Assembly (NCBI GenBank): GCA_944363605.1
Contig: CALVUM010000026.1
Span: 1-50,954 of the forward strand
DNA: 50,954 nucleotides
Source: an uncultured Bacilli bacterium
Lineage (GTDB): Bacteria; Bacillota_I; Bacilli_A; RF39; UBA660
Direction of reading: 5' to 3'
Both the position numbers and the translations under genes were made by a program. Below, piece after piece: positions 1,340-30,408 of the stretch. How positions within the stretch are numbered: position 1 is the first letter of the stretch; every line of letters begins with the position of its first letter. The notes beneath the pieces were generated by a model that worked only from the letters and a program-made list of their open reading frames with translations, had not been told where the DNA came from and searched no databases.

Positions 1340-1869
1340 ATGAATGAAATGGATAAAAAAAGTTTAGAAAATGCAAAAAAATTATTTTTGATATCAAAAA
1401 TATTTTAGCTGGTACAACAAAAGGATTACAACAAATCTATAAATATTTATTTGATGGATTATATGATTTTTCTGGTAAGATTCGTAAAGAAAATATTTCT
1501 AAAGGAAACTTTAGATTTGGAAATTCTTTATACTTAGAAGAAATGTTAGAAAAAATTGAAACTATGAGTGAAGATACTTTAGATAAAATTATAGATAAAT
1601 ATGTTGAAATGAATATTGCTCACCCTTTTTTAGAGGGAAATGGTTGTAGTACGAGGATTTGGTTAGATTTAATTTTAAAAAAGAATTTAAATAAAATTGT
1701 TAGTTGGGAAAATATTGATAAAAAGCTTTATTTACAAGTAATGGAAAGAAGCCCAGTAAACACTTTAGAAATCAAAACTTTAATTGAAAATAATTTAACC
1801 GATGATTTTAGTTTAGAGAGTTTTTTTAAAGGGATAGAAGCATCATATTATTATGAGATTAATGAGTAG
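1340..1869 (+). pseudogene. Fic/DOC family protein, frameshifted in an A7 run, with a degenerate Fic motif
   Basis: GAGGTGA RBS + ATG at 1340, stop after 22 codons at 1406-1408. The next frame continues ...[37 protein letters not shown]... into ORF 1543..1869, which contains [12 protein letters not shown] (canonical HxFx[DE]GNGRxxR). The frame change maps to the A-run at 1375-1381. Confidence 0.8.
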
Positions 1870-20203: not shown

Positions 20204-20212
20204 ATTAAAATA

Positions 20213-20329
20213 AAAAAGCAGGTGAAGCCAGCCTTTTAAATGGCAATAAAAGAAGTGAGTGAAACCAGCTCTATAAATGGTAATTAAAAAAGTGAGTGAA
20301 ACCAGCTCTATAAATGGTAACTAAAAAAG
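20213..20329 (+). ncRNA. ToxI/antiQ-like type III antitoxin RNA: three tandem 37-nt repeats
   Basis: The CCAGC landmarks at 20228, 20265 and 20302 give an exact 37-nt period. Units 2 and 3 differ at one base and unit 1 matches 27/37. The repeats sit directly upstream of a ToxN/AbiQ-family ORF. Confidence 0.8.
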
Positions 20330-20364
20330 AAGGTTAGAGAGCAAACTCTAGCCTTTTATTTTTA
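20330..20364 (+). terminator. intrinsic terminator between the antitoxin repeats and toxN
   Basis: AAGGTTAGAG / CTCTAGCCTT 10-bp stem (one G-U pair), 6-nt loop, then TTATTTTTAT. Confidence 0.65.
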
Positions 20365-20401
20365 TAAAAAATAGTATATATTGGGTTTGTGAGGTAATGC
20401 T

Positions 20402-20914
20402 ATGTATAGAAAATTAAAAATTGTTAAAGTTGATGTCAATTATTGTGATTATTTAAGAAATTTCGATAGTAGAGTATCTTATAATGCAGGTTCAAAAGAG
20501 TTAAGACCGTTTGTTGGTGTTTTATTTATGATAGATAAATGTCAATATTTTGCACCTTTATCAAGTCCTAAACCAAAACATAAAACATTACGAAATACAT
20601 TGGATGTTTTTAAAATAAATGATGGTAATTATGGAATTGTAAATTTTAATAATATGATACCTGTAAATGAAAGCAATTATGTTGAATTTGATTTAAATAA
20701 GGAAACAAATGATAAAAATGAGAAAGCAAGAATTAATTTGATGAAGAATCAATTAAGGTTTTTAACAAAAAATAGGAAAGAAATCTATACAAAATCAGAA
20801 CTTTTATATAATTTGTATAAAAATGACAAATTGCCTAAAAATGTCAAATCTAGATGTTGTAATTTTATGTTATTAGAAGAAAAATGTAGGGAGTATAATA
20901 CTGTCAAAGAATAA
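20402..20914 (+). CDS. toxN: ToxN/AbiQ family type III toxin (endoribonuclease)
   Basis: 170 aa, GAGGTAA RBS. The landmarks ..CQYFAPLSSPKPKH.. and ..CCNFMLLEEKCREY.. match ToxN (..YLAPLTSPKKWH.., ..CNFSLLEEKYRDF..) in the same order and spacing. Confidence 0.9.
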   Translation: MYRKLKIVKVDVNYCDYLRNFDSRVSYNAGSKELRPFVGVLFMIDKCQYFAPLSSPKPKHKTLRNTLDVFKINDGNYGIVNFNNMIPVNESNYVEFDLNKETNDKNEKARINLMKNQLRFLTKNRKEIYTKSELLYNLYKNDKLPKNVKSRCCNFMLLEEKCREYNTVKE

Positions 20915-21129: not shown

Positions 21130-21594
21130 TTGACAGTTTTATCAGAATTCTTAATTGAAGCTAAAAAACAAACTTATGCTAATGAAAATGTGAAAAAACA
21201 GCTTTCATCTAGGAAAGGTTCATATGATTATGAATATAGCAATGGAAGAATGTTATATCATGATACTTATTTTGGTGGAACTGATTTTATGGGAGAAGAA
21301 GTGGTTTATGAACAAGATGATACGCCTATATGGGGAATGAATTACTATGGCATTACTTTAGATAAGTCATTATGTGAGGAAGCTATGGACAAAGCTTTAA
21401 GACCGGCATTAATGCAAGTTGGAAGTGACGATACTATTCCAGTCAGAGGCCCAAAAGAGTATGTAAATGGTAAATACAAATATATTTTTGATGTATCGGG
21501 TAGTCTTGATAATTTTGAAGGAGAAGAATCAATTTATATAGATGATAAAAAGGTCTATGTTTTAAAATGCCATGGTGGAATAATAAAAAGATAA
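21130..21594 (+). CDS. hypothetical protein (DUF5680-like, weak)
   Basis: TTG start after AAAGGAG. The pattern ..KQTYAN...Y.DTYFGG..F.GEEVVY....PIWGMNYYG recalls DUF5680. By-eye call only. Confidence 0.45.
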   Translation: MTVLSEFLIEAKKQTYANENVKKQLSSRKGSYDYEYSNGRMLYHDTYFGGTDFMGEEVVYEQDDTPIWGMNYYGITLDKSLCEEAMDKALRPALMQVGSDDTIPVRGPKEYVNGKYKYIFDVSGSLDNFEGEESIYIDDKKVYVLKCHGGIIKR

Positions 21595-21607
21595 GGAGAA
21601 TATAAAA

Positions 21608-21985
21608 ATGAATTTATTTCATTATAAGGATTTAATTGATGGTAATCCTATTCATATTGCAACAGTAAATAGTAGTAATAATCCTAATTTATCAGTTGCT
21701 TCTGATGTTAGAGTAATTAAAGAAAACGAAATAATAATATCAGTTAATGAGATGAGTAATACTCAAAAAAATATTGAGCACAATTCAAATATAGTTATAA
21801 CAGCTTTTAATTCAGAATGGATTGGGCTGAGAATTTTTGGTAAAGGGCAGTTTTATACCGATGGAAAGTATTATGATTTTTGTAATAAAACATTTTTCTC
21901 AAATGGTGAAGTTACTCCTTTTGGTGCTACACAGCCAAAGGGTGCTATTTTAGTAAAAGTAGATAAAATTGAAGAGTTTAAATAA
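21608..21985 (+). CDS. pyridoxamine 5'-phosphate oxidase-like (split-barrel flavin-binding) family protein
   Basis: 125 aa, AAGGAGA RBS. N-terminal ...PIHIATVNSSNNPNLSVASDVRV... is typical of small PNPOx-like proteins. Confidence 0.5.
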   Translation: MNLFHYKDLIDGNPIHIATVNSSNNPNLSVASDVRVIKENEIIISVNEMSNTQKNIEHNSNIVITAFNSEWIGLRIFGKGQFYTDGKYYDFCNKTFFSNGEVTPFGATQPKGAILVKVDKIEEFK

Positions 21986-22071
21986 AAGTGATTTAAAAGT
22001 AGTTATTAGATTCTATAATAAATGTATTTATAAATTTTAATTTTTAATAAATTAAGAAAGCGTAAATATTT

Positions 22072-22875
22072 ATGGAACATGTGATGAAGTTAAATGCTTC
22101 TAGTTTTGAAGATTTAAAACTTGGTAAGAAGAAGCGGGAATATAGACTTAATGATGAAAAAAGAAAGCTAGTTAGAGTAGGAGATACAATTCGATTTTTA
22201 AAACTTCCTAATTTAGATGAAGAGTTTTTGGTTGATGTTTTAGATGTAGAGGTTTTTAAAGACTGGTATCAGTGTTATTCAAAGTATTTTGATGAAGATT
22301 TTAAAAATTCTTATAAGAACGTAGAAGCAGTAGTTCAAGATACTTTTGATGGTGGTTATTATACGGAAGAGGAATCCAAAGAAAATGAGTGTGTTGTTTT
22401 TTCAATAAAAAAGCATAGAGTTGCTCATTATAATTCGACCGTATGTTATTTAAAAAAAGATGATAAAGTTTTGATGATTAAGTTTTCGAAAAAATGGGGA
22501 TTTGTGTATGCTCCACCGGGTGGGAAATTTGAAGAAGGTGAAACACCGCTTGACTGCATTACTAGGGAATTTTATGAAGAAACGGGATTAAATTTAATTA
22601 ATCCTAGATTACAAGGTATATCTTATTGGAAAGACAATAAAAATAAAAAGGGAATTATTTTTATTTTTACTGCAGAAGATTTTACAGGAAATTTAATTGC
22701 AAGTTCTAACGAGGGTAATTTAGAATGGATAAATTTTGATGAATTACAAAATATATTACAGTTTGATCAAAATCAGAAGTTTACATCTTATTTATTTAAA
22801 AAAGATTTATTTGAAGGAAAGTTCTTAATTGATGGTCATTGTAATGTTTTAAATTATGAAATAAGAAAAATGTGA
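22072..22875 (+). CDS. ASCH domain - Nudix hydrolase fusion protein
   Basis: The N-terminal ~110 aa is ASCH-like (..GKKKREYRLNDEKRKLVRVGDTIRF..). The C-terminus carries the Nudix box GGKFEEGETPLDCITREFYEETGL. Confidence 0.75.
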   Translation: MEHVMKLNASSFEDLKLGKKKREYRLNDEKRKLVRVGDTIRFLKLPNLDEEFLVDVLDVEVFKDWYQCYSKYFDEDFKNSYKNVEAVVQDTFDGGYYTEEESKENECVVFSIKKHRVAHYNSTVCYLKKDDKVLMIKFSKKWGFVYAPPGGKFEEGETPLDCITREFYEETGLNLINPRLQGISYWKDNKNKKGIIFIFTAEDFTGNLIASSNEGNLEWINFDELQNILQFDQNQKFTSYLFKKDLFEGKFLIDGHCNVLNYEIRKM

Positions 22876-25900: not shown

Positions 25901-26050
25901 GAGTAGTTCATTTATATGAATATTCCTTTTTAATTTTTCTAGAACTCGGGTAGTTAAAACGGCGGTCTTTCCAGAACCAGCACCTGCCGAGACGATGATG
26001 TTTTGGCCACTTTTTTCAATTGCTTTTATTTGTTCACTCGTCCAAGCCAT
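22934..26050 (-). CDS. addA: helicase-nuclease AddAB subunit A (UvrD-like helicase + C-terminal PD-(D/E)XK nuclease)
   Basis: Walker A AGAGSGKTAV, DEYQDTS, helicase motifs, C-terminal GIIDLMLIY..IDIIDYK nuclease motif. Overlaps the addB stop by 17 nt. Confidence 0.9.
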   Translation of the reverse strand: MAWTSEQIKAIEKSGQNIIVSAGAGSGKTAVLTTRVLEKLKRNIHINELLILTFTNAAAAEMKERIKQNIEKENLLEELKLLDVAYITTFDSFALSLVKKYHYLLNIPKDIKITDSSLLNMKKREILNNIFNEYYEKDNNSLFKELIYTTCIKDDEELQNTIINLTNKLEIRIDLEEYLNSYIKNFYSEEKITELINTFHEIVKEKAYGILDEVENVQNYFEQDYLQKIKNTLLPLLEEQPLDNLLAKIKGLKLPILPRGSDEETKEAKEKINALVKEIKTYTIFENEETIKKDYIQSKDLLEILIEILQKYFYQLEKYKKENFLFDFQDIAKMSLNLVKEQDEIRNTLKQEFKEIMVDEYQDTSDIQEAFISLISNNNVYMVGDIKQSIYRFRNANPYIFKEKYDAYSQNLGGIKIDLVKNFRSRKEVLENINLIFNPIMDQEIGSADYLTTHQMVFGNMSYEEQGKTTTSHQMEIQTYDPKDTTFSKEEIEIFTIGKDILKKIQNEEPIFNMKTGSLKKAEFKDFCIIMDRNATFDLTKKIFEYLHIPLTLYKDEELNISTDILLIKNILTLLIEIKEHNFTEKFKHAFLSLARSYLYHLEDEEIFEYFKGFTFKSSPIYQDLEPLAKKIDILSIKEIIEEVLEITNFYEKIITIGNIKETITRIDQITKLSENYNKMGQTIYEFQDFLNELLKKEEKIKYNLGTSSNNSVKIMNIHKSKGLEFPICYFCGLYKSFSKKDLTSLLIYEKDSPIYIPIFNEGIKETIIKVLINEKMKKEDISEKIRLFYVALTRAKEKMIFILPEKEEIKEIKNENGVIINRIRYNYKSLADILYSIPIELKKYKKKIDLQELELTKDYLIRKDLENNLENNKEKMNITPINITEKEIIPLTFSKSIPNIIDKQTKKNMDLGTKFHETLELIDLANCDISKIEDSWIAKVIENLLKNPLLKDSKNATIYQEYEFIYKKEGKEYHGIIDLMLIYNDHIDIIDYKLNEITDEAYLKQLHGYKEYIESLKNIPVNTYLFSILSNTIKKLE

Positions 26051-28376
26051 TTGGCACCTCCTTTTTTAAAAAGTCTTTTACTGTATTTATATAGACATTG
26101 TATTTAGGACTATGAAAACAGATGTCTTGATAAGGACAAAAAGGGCAACTTGCATTTTCTTTATTGTCAACGATTTTCGGGTTTATCAGAAAATTTCCCT
26201 CTTCAATATTTTTTAGACAATTGTTGATGTTTTTTTCAATTAATTCTTTCATTGTGCTAAGTGTTTCTTCATCGAGAATTTTACTTGTTTGATAGAAGTT
26301 GCCATCTTTTTTTTCTTTTAATCCGGCGATGATTTTTGATGATGAGAAACTGTTATCCACTAAACCTAATATTTCTTTGTTCGGGTTACTATAGCCTTGA
26401 AGCTTTAGGCATTCTTTTTTTTCGGCTTCATAGTTTTTTTCGGGATTCTGTTTTATTTTAGGAAGAATGATTTTTTGAAGATAGAAACCACCGATGACAA
26501 TGTTTTCTAAATTTGGTATTTTGGTTGCGAGATAAAGATAAATAGGTAGTTGTAGGTTTAATCCTATAGGATAATAAGATGGTAGAATAGCTGTACTTCC
26601 TGTTTTATAATCTGTTATGTTGATAACTGTTTGGTTATTCACTTTTTTATAGCTTAATTTATCGATTTTTCCTTTAAAAGTAATATCTAAATTGCTTGGA
26701 ATTTTTATTTCAATAGGTACTTCGGTCTTTATTTCGGTTAACGATGAGAAAGTTTCTTGTTCTTTTATGGTATTTATAACAAATCGTAATTCTTCTTTTA
26801 GTTTTTTTAGGAAAAAAAGTTCTTTGCAAGTCCATTCATTTTCTTTGATTTCATGCTCATAAATATAATCAAAATCAAATTCTTCTTCATGTATCTGTTC
26901 TAAAACTTTATGATATAAATTTCCCAATTTTAAATTGAAATTTTCTTCTTTAGGAGATATTTTTATGATGTTGTTTAAAAAGAAGGCAAATGAACATTTA
27001 TTAAAAGTGTCTAGACTTGTATAAGACAATGTTAATTTGTTTTTTATAAAATCAAAGATTTTTTGAGGTGGGATTTTCCTAAATTGTTCATCGTATGTTT
27101 GATAGGGTAGGGAATAAGAATTGTTTAGTTTTAAAAGAGTAGGGGTAATGGTACTGTATTTGTTATAGTCATCTAAAAGACTTGCTAGCTCTAATTTATT
27201 GTATTCATTAGAGTATGTATATGTCGGTTGTTTATTTGTGATTATTTTTCCATTTTCTAAAAGAGGGGATGGGTAACATGGTTTTCCGTTTTGTTCTTTT
27301 TTATAGGTTATGAAAGTATTTTTGTTTCCATACATTATTTTTAATAGAGTTTCTTTTTCTTCTAGGTTTTTTTCTTCGGCTGTTGAAAATCCTAAGTATT
27401 TTTTTTCTTTATCTGTTAAATATTCTTCATCTTTAAATGTTTTTGGAATGTTGTTATTAAATCCTAAAATAAAAATGTAATCCTCTTCATTCACTTCTTC
27501 TTTTAGATTAAGTTCATGGATAGCATTTTCTTTTAAAATTTCTTTTTTGGTTTTTGTGGATAACTCTTTTTTTATAAACATTTTTTTTGATTTTAAATCT
27601 GTATATTTATTTAGAGTTTCAATTATCATTTTGATAATTTCTTGATTTTCAGGAAATTTTTTTTGTTCGTTTAAATAATCTATTCCTAAAGTTTCTTCTT
27701 GTTCGTATAAATGAAGAAATTTGGTAACAAGCGGTATTTCTAGAAGCGTTGTTCTTTCTTTTAAGGCTAAAGGTATTTTGAGGAGTTTAAAAATTCTTTT
27801 TAATGATGGTATGTATTCATCGGTAATGTTTTTTAAATATATTTGGTTAATGTTTACGCCTTGATTTATAAGTTCGCATATCATCTCGCCAATGATTGTT
27901 ATTTCTTCGTCTATATTTTGACATTCATAAATTTGAGGAATAAAGTTTTTTTTCTCTTCTTCTATAAATTCTATATTTGGAAATTCGTTAAATATTTTTT
28001 TCAAGGTTGTAGAGGGATAAAGGTTTTCGATTTGTATTTGACTTTTTTCTAGTTTTTCCTTTAATAAGATATTATATGTTAAAAGATTTTTCTCTAATAA
28101 TTTTTTCTTTAAGTTGGAAAGAAAAATTCCTTTTTCTGTTGGAAGATTTTCAACTGGATATAAAGTGAGTGTAGATAAGTATATTTTGGCAACATCTAAA
28201 ATCACGTTTTCTTCTTCACAGATAAATTCTAAAGTTTTATTCGTATATTGATAGGGATATATGTTAAGTAATTCATTTATTGAATAAAATTTTATTTGTT
28301 TAAAAGGCGTAGTTTCTCTTATTTCTTTTATTTTTCTTTTTTTGTTAAAATTATTGGTTATAAGAATTGTGGCCAT
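26034..28376 (-). CDS. addB: helicase-nuclease AddAB subunit B (inactive helicase fold + Fe-S nuclease domain)
   Basis: Position upstream of addA. Nuclease motif GKIDKL..ITDYKTG. Cys cluster FNKCSF ... CPFCPYQDIC as in the AddB iron-sulfur staple. Confidence 0.85.
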   Translation of the reverse strand: MATILITNNFNKKRKIKEIRETTPFKQIKFYSINELLNIYPYQYTNKTLEFICEEENVILDVAKIYLSTLTLYPVENLPTEKGIFLSNLKKKLLEKNLLTYNILLKEKLEKSQIQIENLYPSTTLKKIFNEFPNIEFIEEEKKNFIPQIYECQNIDEEITIIGEMICELINQGVNINQIYLKNITDEYIPSLKRIFKLLKIPLALKERTTLLEIPLVTKFLHLYEQEETLGIDYLNEQKKFPENQEIIKMIIETLNKYTDLKSKKMFIKKELSTKTKKEILKENAIHELNLKEEVNEEDYIFILGFNNNIPKTFKDEEYLTDKEKKYLGFSTAEEKNLEEKETLLKIMYGNKNTFITYKKEQNGKPCYPSPLLENGKIITNKQPTYTYSNEYNKLELASLLDDYNKYSTITPTLLKLNNSYSLPYQTYDEQFRKIPPQKIFDFIKNKLTLSYTSLDTFNKCSFAFFLNNIIKISPKEENFNLKLGNLYHKVLEQIHEEEFDFDYIYEHEIKENEWTCKELFFLKKLKEELRFVINTIKEQETFSSLTEIKTEVPIEIKIPSNLDITFKGKIDKLSYKKVNNQTVINITDYKTGSTAILPSYYPIGLNLQLPIYLYLATKIPNLENIVIGGFYLQKIILPKIKQNPEKNYEAEKKECLKLQGYSNPNKEILGLVDNSFSSSKIIAGLKEKKDGNFYQTSKILDEETLSTMKELIEKNINNCLKNIEEGNFLINPKIVDNKENASCPFCPYQDICFHSPKYNVYINTVKDFLKKEVPNGLDE

Positions 28377-28474
28377 AATACTTCACCTTGTTTTATTATA
28401 ACATGAATGGGAAAAACTCAAAAGCAAGGGTTTTGGATGATTTTTTATTTAAAAAATTTGTCGAACGTTTTTTG

Positions 28475-28502
28475 TTGCAATTTGTAAGAAACTATTTAGA
28501 AT
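28475..28502 (+). promoter_or_regulatory. sigma-A promoter candidate for small-peptide mRNA (copy 1; equivalent at 28830-28857)
   Basis: TTGCAA - 16 nt - TAGAAT, conserved in both copies. Confidence 0.55.
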
Positions 28503-28604
28503 AAAGCTCGTTATCTATTAGGTGGTAACGTCTACTTCATTTATTAGTAGATTTAATTCTACTGAATTTTCTCAGGGGGGTTAAATGAAAGTAGGTGAAG
28601 TTAT

Positions 28605-28679
28605 ATGAGCAAGGAAAAAAAGTACTTATATCATATAATATTTTTATTACTATTAGTTATTATACTAATTTTAATATAA
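28605..28679 (+). CDS. 24-aa hydrophobic peptide MSKEKKYLYHIIFLLLLVIILILI, type I toxin-like (copy 1)
   Basis: AGGTGA SD 6 nt upstream of the ATG. A charged N-terminus is followed by a single hydrophobic helix. Copy 2 encodes the identical peptide with one synonymous difference. Not in the ORF track because it is too short. Confidence 0.6.
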   Translation: MSKEKKYLYHIIFLLLLVIILILI

Positions 28680-28760
28680 AAAAAGGACGTTAGCTTTATA
28701 TAGCATAACGTCTATACAATAATGGTAGACGCTATCCACCAAGATGGATAACATTTACAA
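28680..28760 (-). ncRNA. candidate cis-antisense (antitoxin-like) sRNA, copy 1
   Basis: Minus-strand promoter TTGCTT-17 nt-TATACT (plus coordinates 28765-28793). The transcript would contain the hairpin GUUAUCCA/UGGAUAGC and end at GACGUUA...UAACGUC + U7, a terminator oriented for the minus strand. Confidence 0.4.
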
Positions 28761-28959
28761 GATAAGTATATGATATCTTTTTTATAAAAGCAACACAAAA
28801 CTTCCGCAGATTTTGTCGAATACTTTTTGTTGCAATTTGTAAGAATTTATTTAGAATAAGCTTCGTTATCTATTAGGTGGTAACGTCTACTTCATTTATT
28901 AGTAGATTTAATTCTACTGAAGTTTCTCAGGGGGGTTAAATGAAAGTAGGTGAAGTTAT

Positions 28960-29034
28960 ATGAGCAAGGAAAAAAAGTACTTATATCATATAATATTTTT
29001 ATTACTATTAGTTATCATACTAATTTTAATATAA
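28960..29034 (+). CDS. 24-aa hydrophobic peptide, type I toxin-like (copy 2)
   Basis: Same SD, uORF and peptide as copy 1. The single difference is ATT>ATC, which is synonymous. Confidence 0.6.
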   Translation: MSKEKKYLYHIIFLLLLVIILILI

Positions 29035-29115
29035 AAAAGGACGTTAGCTTTATAATAGCATAACGTCTATTAAAAATCGGTAGACGCTATCCATCGAAAT
29101 GGATAACATTTACAA
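29035..29115 (-). ncRNA. candidate cis-antisense sRNA, copy 2
   Basis: Minus-strand TTGTAT-17 nt-TATACT (plus 29120-29148) and the same terminator hairpin + U-run. Confidence 0.35.
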
Positions 29116-29208
29116 GATAAGTATATGATATTTTTTTTATAAATACAACAATAAACTTCTGCTTTTTTTAGGTTCTTAATTTGCTTAATTAAAATGAAAT
29201 TTATATTG

Positions 29209-30408
29209 CTACTTAGTTTTTTTTATAATTGAACCGTCTTTTGAAATTTTATAATTATTATTAAATAATATGTTTGCTGATATTAACTGATATATTGACG
29301 AACTGATTTGTCCAAGTCCTGTACAAAAAGGGGTTTTTAAAAGTGAAACTAGTGTTCTTAAAATATTTGCTGCTGTTTTATTTATTGTTGTTTTAATTGC
29401 TGAATATTCAAGTTGCAAAAAGCATGTTTTTATTGTATAAAGTGGATAAATAGAGAAATTGATTATCTCAAAACAAAAATAAATCATTACTAATAATATA
29501 TTTAATTCATAAAAACTGTATAAAGCTATAAACAAAATAAATATCGTAATAAATAAGATTAATAATAGCTTATAAGAATTGTTCTTGTGCTCTTTATAAT
29601 TAAATTTATTTTTACTTATGTCAATTTTGGCTACAGTAGAAATTGCATCAAAAACATCCCATTGAGTATCTGTTATTAGTGCTATAAAAGTTAAAGCTAA
29701 TGTAAATTCTTCACCAAATTCTGTTGTGTTACTTAATCCAAATAAAAAGATAAAGAAAAATGCTAAATTATTAAGTAATTCTGTTGAATCATATTTTATA
29801 CATTTTAAAATGTTAAAATGAAATTTAAATTTATTACGTGATTTTATTGCAACATATATTGTGTAACTAAATATAGATAATAATGTTATACTTATTGAGA
29901 TTACTTGGTTTTTTATTAAAAGTGAAGTACCAATTAACATAGTACAATTTAAAAGACTAAATTTTAAAGAATATTTATTTGCAATATTGTTTTTATCTTC
30001 ATAATATAGTTTTTCCATTATAAATATAAATAATAACTGTATATTCAGTTGAATAACTGAATATATGGTAAATGTTTTATATGTTGATATATCCATATGC
30101 ATAAAATTTATATAATTTTCTATATTTATTATTATAAATCCGAAAATGATTAATGAGATAATACTTCCAATTATTATTCCGGACATAACAATATTGTTGT
30201 CCTTATCTTTTTCTTTACTTATGTTAGCACCTGTAGAAAATATTGATTTTAAAATATAATTGATAAATTGAATGGGATAAGTTAATGTAAAAATATTTAT
30301 TAAATTTTTATCAATTATTAGACTTAAACAAAACCAAGATAATACGGGTGTAAAGGATAAAAGTGCTAGATCTAAACTTATTTTTAATAATCTTTTCATT
30401 AAAATCAC
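29209..30408 (-). CDS. polytopic membrane protein (~12 TM; possibly MOP/Wzx-like flippase fold)
   Basis: 399 aa, almost entirely hydrophobic helices. Extremely AT-rich and Ile/Asn/Lys/Phe-biased. No clear motif, so the function call is weak. Confidence 0.5.
   Translation of the reverse strand: MILMKRLLKISLDLALLSFTPVLSWFCLSLIIDKNLINIFTLTYPIQFINYILKSIFSTGANISKEKDKDNNIVMSGIIIGSIISLIIFGFIIINIENYINFMHMDISTYKTFTIYSVIQLNIQLLFIFIMEKLYYEDKNNIANKYSLKFSLLNCTMLIGTSLLIKNQVISISITLLSIFSYTIYVAIKSRNKFKFHFNILKCIKYDSTELLNNLAFFFIFLFGLSNTTEFGEEFTLALTFIALITDTQWDVFDAISTVAKIDISKNKFNYKEHKNNSYKLLLILFITIFILFIALYSFYELNILLVMIYFCFEIINFSIYPLYTIKTCFLQLEYSAIKTTINKTAANILRTLVSLLKTPFCTGLGQISSSIYQLISANILFNNNYKISKDGSIIKKTK

Follow-up and report, generated by a model that had tools for sequence, protein, structure and literature searches.

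Type I toxin-antitoxin systems have been reported from few phyla only (PMC12390103), and most of the available data stem from homology to toxins already known (PMC8594479). Here we describe a candidate for this class in a stretch of 50,954 nucleotides from an uncultured Bacilli bacterium of the RF39 lineage (contig CALVUM010000026.1, positions 1 to 50,954; hereafter the window), in which two head-to-tail units of 355 bp occupy an intergenic gap. Judged from its sequence signals, each unit is probably a module of two genes that is controlled by RNA, as in type I toxin-antitoxin systems. This reading was first put forward from the letters of the window alone, and it is supported here by selection on the peptide, multi-copy tandems, a structured leader and convergent antisense signals. 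The family to which both units belong is best read as a family new to the type I class, with an architecture closest to par (Fst/RNA II).

The par locus (Fst/RNA I-RNA II), known from Enterococcus faecalis and other Firmicutes, has convergent promoters and a 3'-side antisense RNA that does not overlap the toxin open reading frame (ORF), as predicted for our module (PMC8594479). An intramolecular stem-loop conceals the Shine-Dalgarno sequence of its toxin mRNA, whose extreme 5' end is buried in a helix, the 5'-UH (PMC7472228); helices that mask the 5' end as well as the Shine-Dalgarno sequence are likewise predicted in the module mRNA, and a short leader motif that recurs downstream is loosely comparable to the par repeats DRa and DRb. 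However, the module peptide gives no Fst match in Pfam or NCBIfam and has neither a PXXXG motif nor a long charged C-terminal tail. Furthermore, the predicted module RNAs overlap over ~80-115 nt of 3' untranslated region (3' UTR) and have separate terminators, whereas par shares one bidirectional terminator; the antisense RNA would measure 80-125 nt in comparison to ~40 nt for RNA II, and outside the overlap it is no more complementary to the leader than shuffled controls are.

The other known systems differ in further respects. The sprA1/SprA1AS locus of Staphylococcus aureus also combines a 3'-side antisense RNA without ORF overlap (PMC8594479) with a toxin of ~30 aa, but SprA1AS acts in trans, with a non-overlapping domain, on the translation start, where no significant pairing is seen here, and PepA1 belongs to the Fst family, which the module peptide does not match. 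The txpA/RatA and bsrG/SR4 loci of Bacillus subtilis resemble the module in being Gram-positive, chromosomal and equipped with a convergent antisense RNA that covers the 3' end of the toxin mRNA. Loci of this type rely on RNase III-dependent decay, with SR4 also affecting the accessibility of the Shine-Dalgarno sequence, and we know of no covarying 5'-3' closing helix described for them. Their toxins (38-59 aa) are unrelated in sequence, with no family match here, and their antisense RNA also overlaps the ORF (PMC8594479), whereas that of the module would stop at the stop codon. In hok/Sok of plasmid R1 and aapA1/IsoA1 of Helicobacter pylori, the full-length mRNA is closed by a long-distance 5'-3' interaction and translationally inert, similar to what is predicted here (for aapA1: PMC5416894, PMC6733600). 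In contrast to the module, in which the 3' partner of the closing helix would be targeted, the antisense RNA of these Gram-negative systems is directed against the 5' region, activation needs 3' processing, and the peptides are unrelated (no match to Pfam HOK_GEF).

As the module does not show the traits that define each known system (a homologous toxin, one bidirectional terminator for both RNAs, an antisense RNA directed at the 5' region), we file it as a new family. Pfam and NCBIfam gave no toxin family for the window peptide or 13 relatives (E up to 1-10), Rfam gave no match at gathering score for the window and 14 related loci, with sub-threshold noise only at E up to 10, and the peptide sequences of the family do not occur in the searched literature. 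Weak Rfam matches to PreQ1, RsaJ and GibS lay far below the gathering scores and were taken as noise. The idea of an undescribed family, already voiced in the sequence-only reading, stands as far as these databases and the literature search reach. One argument used for it has to be given up, namely that a charged N-terminus combined with an uncharged C-terminal end sets the peptide apart. The C-terminus of the window peptide is indeed uncharged, but this is not a family trait, as most members end in Lys (without any Pro or Gly motif), and short toxins with a charged N-terminus already exist in ShoB, Ibs and TisB.

Peptide gene and its relatives

Tandem Repeats Finder describes 28457-29159 as a single tandem array with a period of 355, 2.0 copies and 93% matches. 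The intergenic gap that holds it spans 832 bp, between an addB-like gene (up to 28376) and the next ORF (from 29209). The two copies, called A and B, carry the following features.

Copy A, 28475-28502, plus strand: promoter of the peptide mRNA, TTGCAA-16-TAGAAT (hexamer scan)
Copy A, 28509-28537, plus strand: 5' strand of the predicted long-distance helix, including the extreme 5' end and the motif GGTAACGTCTAC (duplex energy, minimum free energy fold)
Copy A, 28593-28598, plus strand: Shine-Dalgarno sequence AGGTGA, 6 nt 5' of the ATG (direct reading)
Copy A, 28605-28679, plus strand: ORF of 24 aa, MSKEKKYLYHIIFLLLLVIILILI (translation)
Copy A, 28685-28713: hairpin H1, directly 3' of the stop codon; its minus-strand hairpin with U7 forms a predicted intrinsic terminator
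Copy A, 28723-28753, plus strand: 3' strand of the predicted long-distance helix, in the 3' UTR (duplex energy, minimum free energy fold)
Copy A, 28759-28785, plus strand: weak AT-rich hairpin AAGATA/TATCTT with a T-run, likely the mRNA end (minimum free energy fold and reading)
Copy A, 28765-28793, minus strand: antisense promoter TTGCTT-17-TATACT (-35 at 28793-28788, -10 at 28770-28765)
Copy A, ~28758 to 28677, minus strand: predicted antisense RNA of ~82 nt (ends deduced from promoter and terminator)
Copy B, 28830-28857, plus strand: promoter of the peptide mRNA, TTGCAA-16-TAGAAT (hexamer scan)
Copy B, 28864-28892, plus strand: 5' strand of the predicted long-distance helix (duplex energy)
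Copy B, 28948-28953, plus strand: Shine-Dalgarno sequence AGGTGA, 6 nt 5' of the ATG (direct reading)
Copy B, 28960-29034, plus strand: ORF for the same 24-aa peptide (translation)
Copy B, 29039-29067: hairpin H1, predicted antisense terminator; stem arms much as in copy A, loop and flanks different
Copy B, 29078-29108, plus strand: 3' strand of the predicted long-distance helix (duplex energy)
Copy B, 29120-29148, minus strand: antisense promoter TTGTAT-17-TATACT
Copy B, ~29113 to 29032, minus strand: predicted antisense RNA of ~82 nt (homology with copy A)

The tandem pair, the gap of about 830 bp, the promoter, the Shine-Dalgarno sequence and the 24-codon ORFs that are identical save for one synonymous base had all been named in the sequence-only reading, and each was found again at these positions in both copies, the changed base turning ATT into ATC. 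The same applies to the contrast it drew between near-identical ORFs and diverged unpaired spacers: differences between the copies mostly affect the loops of hairpins (28714-28722, 28738-28743) and the margins of the units, whereas the hairpin stems are near-identical, with one inserted A next to the H1 loop of copy B. A short hydrophobic, membrane-spanning peptide of 24 aa behind its own ribosome-binding site (AGGTGA) is what a type I toxin gene should encode. The mRNA of copy A is predicted to start near 28509-28510, the 7th nucleotide past the -10 hexamer, and related modules carry promoters of the form TTGCAx or TTTACA-17-TATAAT at the matching relative position.

These related modules were found from an analogous module downstream of addA in a related metagenome-assembled genome (MAG), L006, with the peptide MNKREKSFYLIIILLFIIVFILLFK. 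A degenerate DNA pattern was made from the window and L006 peptides, and a tighter pattern gave a complete and specific genome scan. In the species-representative genomes (genome_contigs) 59 loci were found, 61 of the 64 pattern matches being ORFs of 16-31 aa behind strong Shine-Dalgarno sites. In total, the family comprises ~60 modules in ~35 MAG species with the consensus M[NTKRS]K[RN]EKxxYxIIxLLFxxxFxLLxK. Besides, 26 stretches of the metagenome contigs match the pattern, ~18 of them with family ORFs and human gut included, while the same scan found no family module in viral contigs, and blastn found no match to the 355-bp window unit in the plasmid and phage collections. A nucleotide profile of the family limits the conserved block to the region from the mRNA start to the antisense promoter. 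Since the profile made without window sequences matches both copies (E = 1.4e-7 and 8.9e-7), the window units are, at the level of nucleotide sequence, divergent members of the family, and their ORF is not a chance product of AT-rich DNA. The pattern of the window subtype (K-E-K-K) had no match in the metagenome contigs, so that the window variant lacks a close relative for a covariation analysis of its own. An exact 20-mer of the leader had three matches in genome_contigs (Maribacter, Leptospiraceae), which we judged to be chance. With an alignment of the two peptides, 599 stretches were matched, none of which passed a tblastn filter, the peptide being too short for it.

Comparative analysis shows the family peptide to be under purifying selection. 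Among distinct family ORFs of 78 nt, the synonymous fraction of the codon differences is 0.42 in frame compared to 0.15 and 0.05 in the other frames, and substitutions fall mostly on codon positions 3 and 1. In addition, three species have an identical peptide in common, with 4-6 synonymous and 0 non-synonymous changes between their ORFs.

Nearly all hosts are labelled by the MAG depositors as Bacilli, Tenericutes, Erysipelotrichaceae or 'Firmicutes bacterium CAG:822', and members were also found on complete MAG chromosomes of 1.34-1.54 Mb. RF39 and RFN20 are described as gut lineages with small genomes (PMC7301438), and the hosts of the family are probably of this type. Two modules (L018, L162) lie on contigs labelled Muribaculaceae (Bacteroidota), all other hosts being Bacilli-type MAGs; for these two, mis-binning is probably likelier than a transfer across phyla.

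The check on copy number and conservation proposed along with the sequence-only reading thus reveals a family that is often multi-copy and tandem. Several MAGs contain 3-4 modules (maximum 4), tandem pairs occur in the window, L084, L154 and L166 (spacing ~350 bp in the latter three), and L066 and L074 have partial second copies. Such tandem or multi-copy organisation is a frequent, though not obligatory, trait of type I loci, among which tandem repeats are reported, and it has served as a search criterion for them (PMC2887945). Some copies look decayed or rebuilt. In the L087 copy, ORF, 3' UTR and antisense gene are retained, whereas the leader is unrelated and devoid of a Shine-Dalgarno sequence (L087:2880-2930) and a 5'-3' helix is lacking (-8.4 kcal/mol); L135, L140 and L168 share a different leader, GGTAAAAGAGTTTAGAT, two of them with truncated ORFs of 16 aa. 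In L066, an orphan 3' half consisting of the 3' UTR and antisense-gene region only (1489-1582, minus strand; nhmmer E = 7e-13) lies directly upstream of a complete module and could be a stand-alone antitoxin gene or the remnant of a tandem copy.

mRNA closure, antisense gene and a possible mechanism

In every subgroup of the family, the first ~30 nt of the predicted mRNA pair with ~36 nt of the 3' UTR, with duplex energies of -25 to -40 kcal/mol (z = -5.7 to -9.4). The sequences of this helix differ by subgroup (GGAUACAUUUGAA..., GGAAUGUUUAAUAA..., GAUAUAUCUAGUUA...; in the window GUUAUC...GGUGGUAACGUCUAC), and cognate partners reach a mean of -33.4 compared to -18.4 with partners taken from other subgroups. 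The duplex of copy A amounts to -31.9 kcal/mol (z = -5.7 relative to shuffled sequences), compared to -20.4 at best when the partner is taken from another subgroup, and that of copy B (28864-28892 with 29078-29108) to -30.1 kcal/mol. RNAalifold applied to 13 non-window mRNAs yields three helices, namely P1a, P1b and the post-stop hairpin H1; the window was left out of this covariation count since MAFFT misaligned its ends against the family. In the consensus helices 95.1% of the cells pair, in comparison to 32-44% if the partners are slid by 1-3 columns, and double changes are found in 18 of the 32 helix pairs; 0 of 500 shuffles reached the observed values. Many of these pairs are G-U, which the opposite strand would turn into A-C, so that what is constrained is the plus-strand RNA and not the DNA.

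The window mRNA (28510-28786, 277 nt) folds with -79.2 kcal/mol (z = -7.5 against shuffles) into a structure closed by the long-distance helix. In all subgroups the inner end of this helix abuts a hairpin that pairs with the Shine-Dalgarno sequence (CCCUUUCU/AGAAAGGG, CCAAUUC/GAAUUGG and others). For copy A, the predicted unpaired probability is 0.15 for the Shine-Dalgarno sequence and 0.00 for the AUG, so the structured leader of ~100 nt proposed earlier is supported, with a length of 96 nt and the Shine-Dalgarno sequence predicted to be paired. If the 3' UTR is constrained as occupied, the unpaired probability of the 5' end rises from ~0-0.13 to 0.1-0.7, while the Shine-Dalgarno sequence shows no consistent change.

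The sequence-only reading had not located the antitoxin. The signals on the minus strand now place it over the 3' UTR and not over the 5' leader: a promoter motif TTGnnn-17-TAnnnT, often with an extended -10 (TGn), lies 112-126 nt past the stop codon in most modules and 85 nt past it in the window. All 18 modules of the first set have this motif, as do 46 of the 56 of the full set, within ~15 nt of the same position, against a background of 8e-4 per nt in these genomes and an expectation of 0.0096 per 12-nt window. The subgroups have its TTG, its -10 and the distance of 17 nt in common, whereas spacer and flanks vary. Just past the -10, 31 of 39 distinct sequences have a 6-bp minus-strand hairpin capped by a GNRA loop (GAAA, GCAA, GUAA or GGGA), whose stems covary and include some G-U pairs that exist on the minus strand only. 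At the other end, the H1-equivalent helix covaries across the family, nearly all modules have an A-run before the hairpin, and the minus-strand U-run of the resulting terminator overlaps the stop codon of the peptide. Together, promoter, GNRA hairpin and terminator point to an antisense gene complementary to the toxin mRNA, as expected for type I, with a predicted RNA of 115-125 nt in most relatives and ~82 nt in the window. The antisense RNA of copy A is predicted to fold into two hairpins plus U7 (-25.8 kcal/mol, z = -5.4). Comparison of the modules shows that the long-distance helix and H1 covary and that promoter and terminator signals are conserved on both strands.

The strand of the 3' UTR that pairs with the mRNA 5' end is fully complementary to the antisense RNA, whose central segment therefore nearly copies the first ~30 nt of the mRNA. 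Outside the overlap, pairing of the whole antisense RNA with the leader (RNAduplex) was not above shuffles (z = 0 to -2.8), and we dropped an Fst- or SprA1-like pairing in trans at the translation start as a supported feature. Short matches between antisense RNA and leader are present, among them a perfect one of 9 bp in the window, UAGACGUUA with UAACGUCUA, and H1 repeats the leader motif in all subgroups.

A mechanism can be outlined from these elements, for which we infer that both strands are transcribed, that the peptide is toxic and how the mRNA decays. The sigma-70-type promoter would give rise to an mRNA of ~275 nt for a membrane peptide with a single helix. With its first ~29 nt paired to its own 3' UTR, this molecule would be closed and its 5' end buried, and with the Shine-Dalgarno sequence and the AUG in local helices the prediction for the full-length mRNA is a stable molecule with little translation. 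The convergent minus-strand RNA of ~82 nt, terminating beside the stop codon, would pair with the perfectly complementary 3' UTR and displace the mRNA 5' end from the closing helix. The freed 5' end could then become accessible to RNase J, RNase Y or other 5'-dependent RNases, and the long duplex between antisense RNA and 3' UTR might serve as a substrate for RNase III, so that the peptide mRNA would be destroyed as long as production of the antisense RNA continues. The decay step is modelled by analogy on decay of the RatA/SR4 type. The other analogy for it is Fst RNA I, whose 5' end is protected by an upstream helix (PMC7472228). We only tentatively suggest that the antitoxin acts as a mimic of the mRNA 5' end, opening the closing helix by strand displacement and thereby converting a closed, protected mRNA into an open, degradable one. 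If true, such 5'-end mimicry would be a logic distinct from both the blocking of the ribosome-binding site (Sok, IsoA, RNA II) and simple cleavage of a 3' duplex (RatA).

Alternative explanations

Instead, the peptide could be a non-toxic membrane micropeptide of use to the cell, for instance as part or regulator of a membrane complex, and the ORF a small-protein gene whose expression is tuned by the cis-antisense RNA. We regard this as unlikely, albeit worth serious consideration: the peptide is very strongly conserved, with identical copies in different species, the modules of the window, L063, L087 and L006 share a syntenic location beside addAB, and both the viral contigs and the plasmid and phage records are devoid of matches. 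However, up to 4 copies per genome, tandem duplicates, truncated ORFs of 16-21 aa, the leaderless L087 copy and the orphan 3' half are more in keeping with type I loci that are selfish or duplicate than with a housekeeping gene, and apart from addAB no conserved partner gene is found next to the modules. Translation and 5' end are, moreover, predicted to be doubly locked as in known toxin mRNAs, and chromosomal type I loci, too, are reported to spread by descent and duplication instead of horizontal transfer (PMC2887945). It is far less probable that the antisense RNA does not exist, with hairpin and U-run of the minus strand terminating the converging gene, the promoter motif arising by chance and control lying in the mRNA structure alone. 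Converging genes are indeed present in the window (29209-30408) and in L006, and promoter-like hexamers are common at 25% GC (13 found in comparison to 7.5 expected), but chance does not account well for the fixed position of the motif and the retention of its TTG, spacing and -10 amid varying surroundings. Nor does it explain a covarying hairpin whose GNRA loop and G-U pairs are sensible on the minus strand only, and internal tandem copies (window copy A, L084a) carry all signals without an adjacent converging gene. Very little, finally, speaks for a repeat without any gene module, whether it is read as a mobile-element end, as an attenuator that controls a downstream gene through a leader peptide or as structured non-coding repeat DNA in which the ORF is incidental. 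The tandem repeat does lie within an intergenic gap, exactly where other assemblies of the same organism break. Nevertheless, no plus-strand gene follows the window ORFs and the next gene (29209-30408) converges on them, which excludes a leader-peptide role; the coding signature is clear, plasmid, phage and viral sequences gave no match, and the conserved block spans the mRNA start to the antisense promoter and nothing else.

Several observations weigh against the two-gene type I module that we prefer. The residues M1, K3, K6, Y9, I11 and I12 were fixed by the search pattern, so their invariance is uninformative, and the fact that several species have the module in the same place beside addB would suit a housekeeping micropeptide as well. 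The window itself is atypical for the family in its leader (96 nt in comparison to ~60) and in its antisense RNA of ~82 nt without the GNRA 5' hairpin, and its antisense -35 hexamers are weak (TTGCTT, TTGTAT). As its subtype consists of two near-identical copies, the helices of the window rest on folding energy and analogy with the family. The window and L006 each have a minus-strand gene running towards the module, for which the minus-strand terminator could serve as well, and several G1 members have no obvious plus-strand terminator.

Genomic setting and implications

The window has a GC content of 24-33%, and the repeat is flanked by two genes of the minus strand.

26034-28376, minus strand: addB-like gene encoding a PDDEXK (PD-(D/E)XK) nuclease
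29209-30408, minus strand: converging ORF past copy B, encoding a multi-pass membrane protein of 399 aa

An addA-like UvrD helicase gene is also located on the minus strand, on the same side of the repeat as the addB-like gene. The 399-aa ORF has no Pfam match, and its exact sequence is absent from the protein collection. The module lies upstream of and divergent from addB in the window, L063 and L087 (AddB proteins 63-65% identical), and downstream of addA in L006. Two independent metagenome assemblies with an identical AddB (L004, L005) end 104-129 nt upstream of the addB gene. Because these contigs stop inside copy A, the tandem duplication breaks short-read assemblies, and such breaks would conceal loci of this kind in many MAGs. 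Facing addB, a promoter-like TCGACA-16-AATCAT is present at 28437-28464 (minus strand), with its -35 inside the left edge of copy A; TCGACA occurs again at the junction of copies A and B (28814-28819), there without a -10.

Elsewhere, the window contains a probable type III toxin-antitoxin locus (20209-20914, plus strand). It consists of 3.3 tandem copies of a 37-nt unit (20209-20329), without an Rfam match at gathering score, followed by an ORF (20402-20914) that matches ToxN (PF13958, E = 9e-47). Just downstream (21130-22875, plus strand) lie genes for a DUF5680 protein (21130-21594) and a NUDIX protein with an N-terminal DUF3850 domain (22072-22875). The ToxN, DUF5680 and NUDIX genes may form a small defence or accessory island adjoining addAB.

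Besides the locus itself, our data point to a whole family in uncultured gut Bacilli without detectable sequence relation to catalogued toxins or antitoxins, which gene callers miss because the ORF is only 75-78 nt long. The family yields a pattern and a profile with which such MAGs can be annotated. With ~60 modules, a covarying 5'-3' closure of the mRNA and strand-specific signals of an antisense gene, the comparative record is unusually clean, and for this reason the RNA mechanism is directly testable. If the peptide is toxic, it would offer a compact kill-switch or a scaffold for antimicrobial peptides, originating from a lineage for which genetic tools are lacking.

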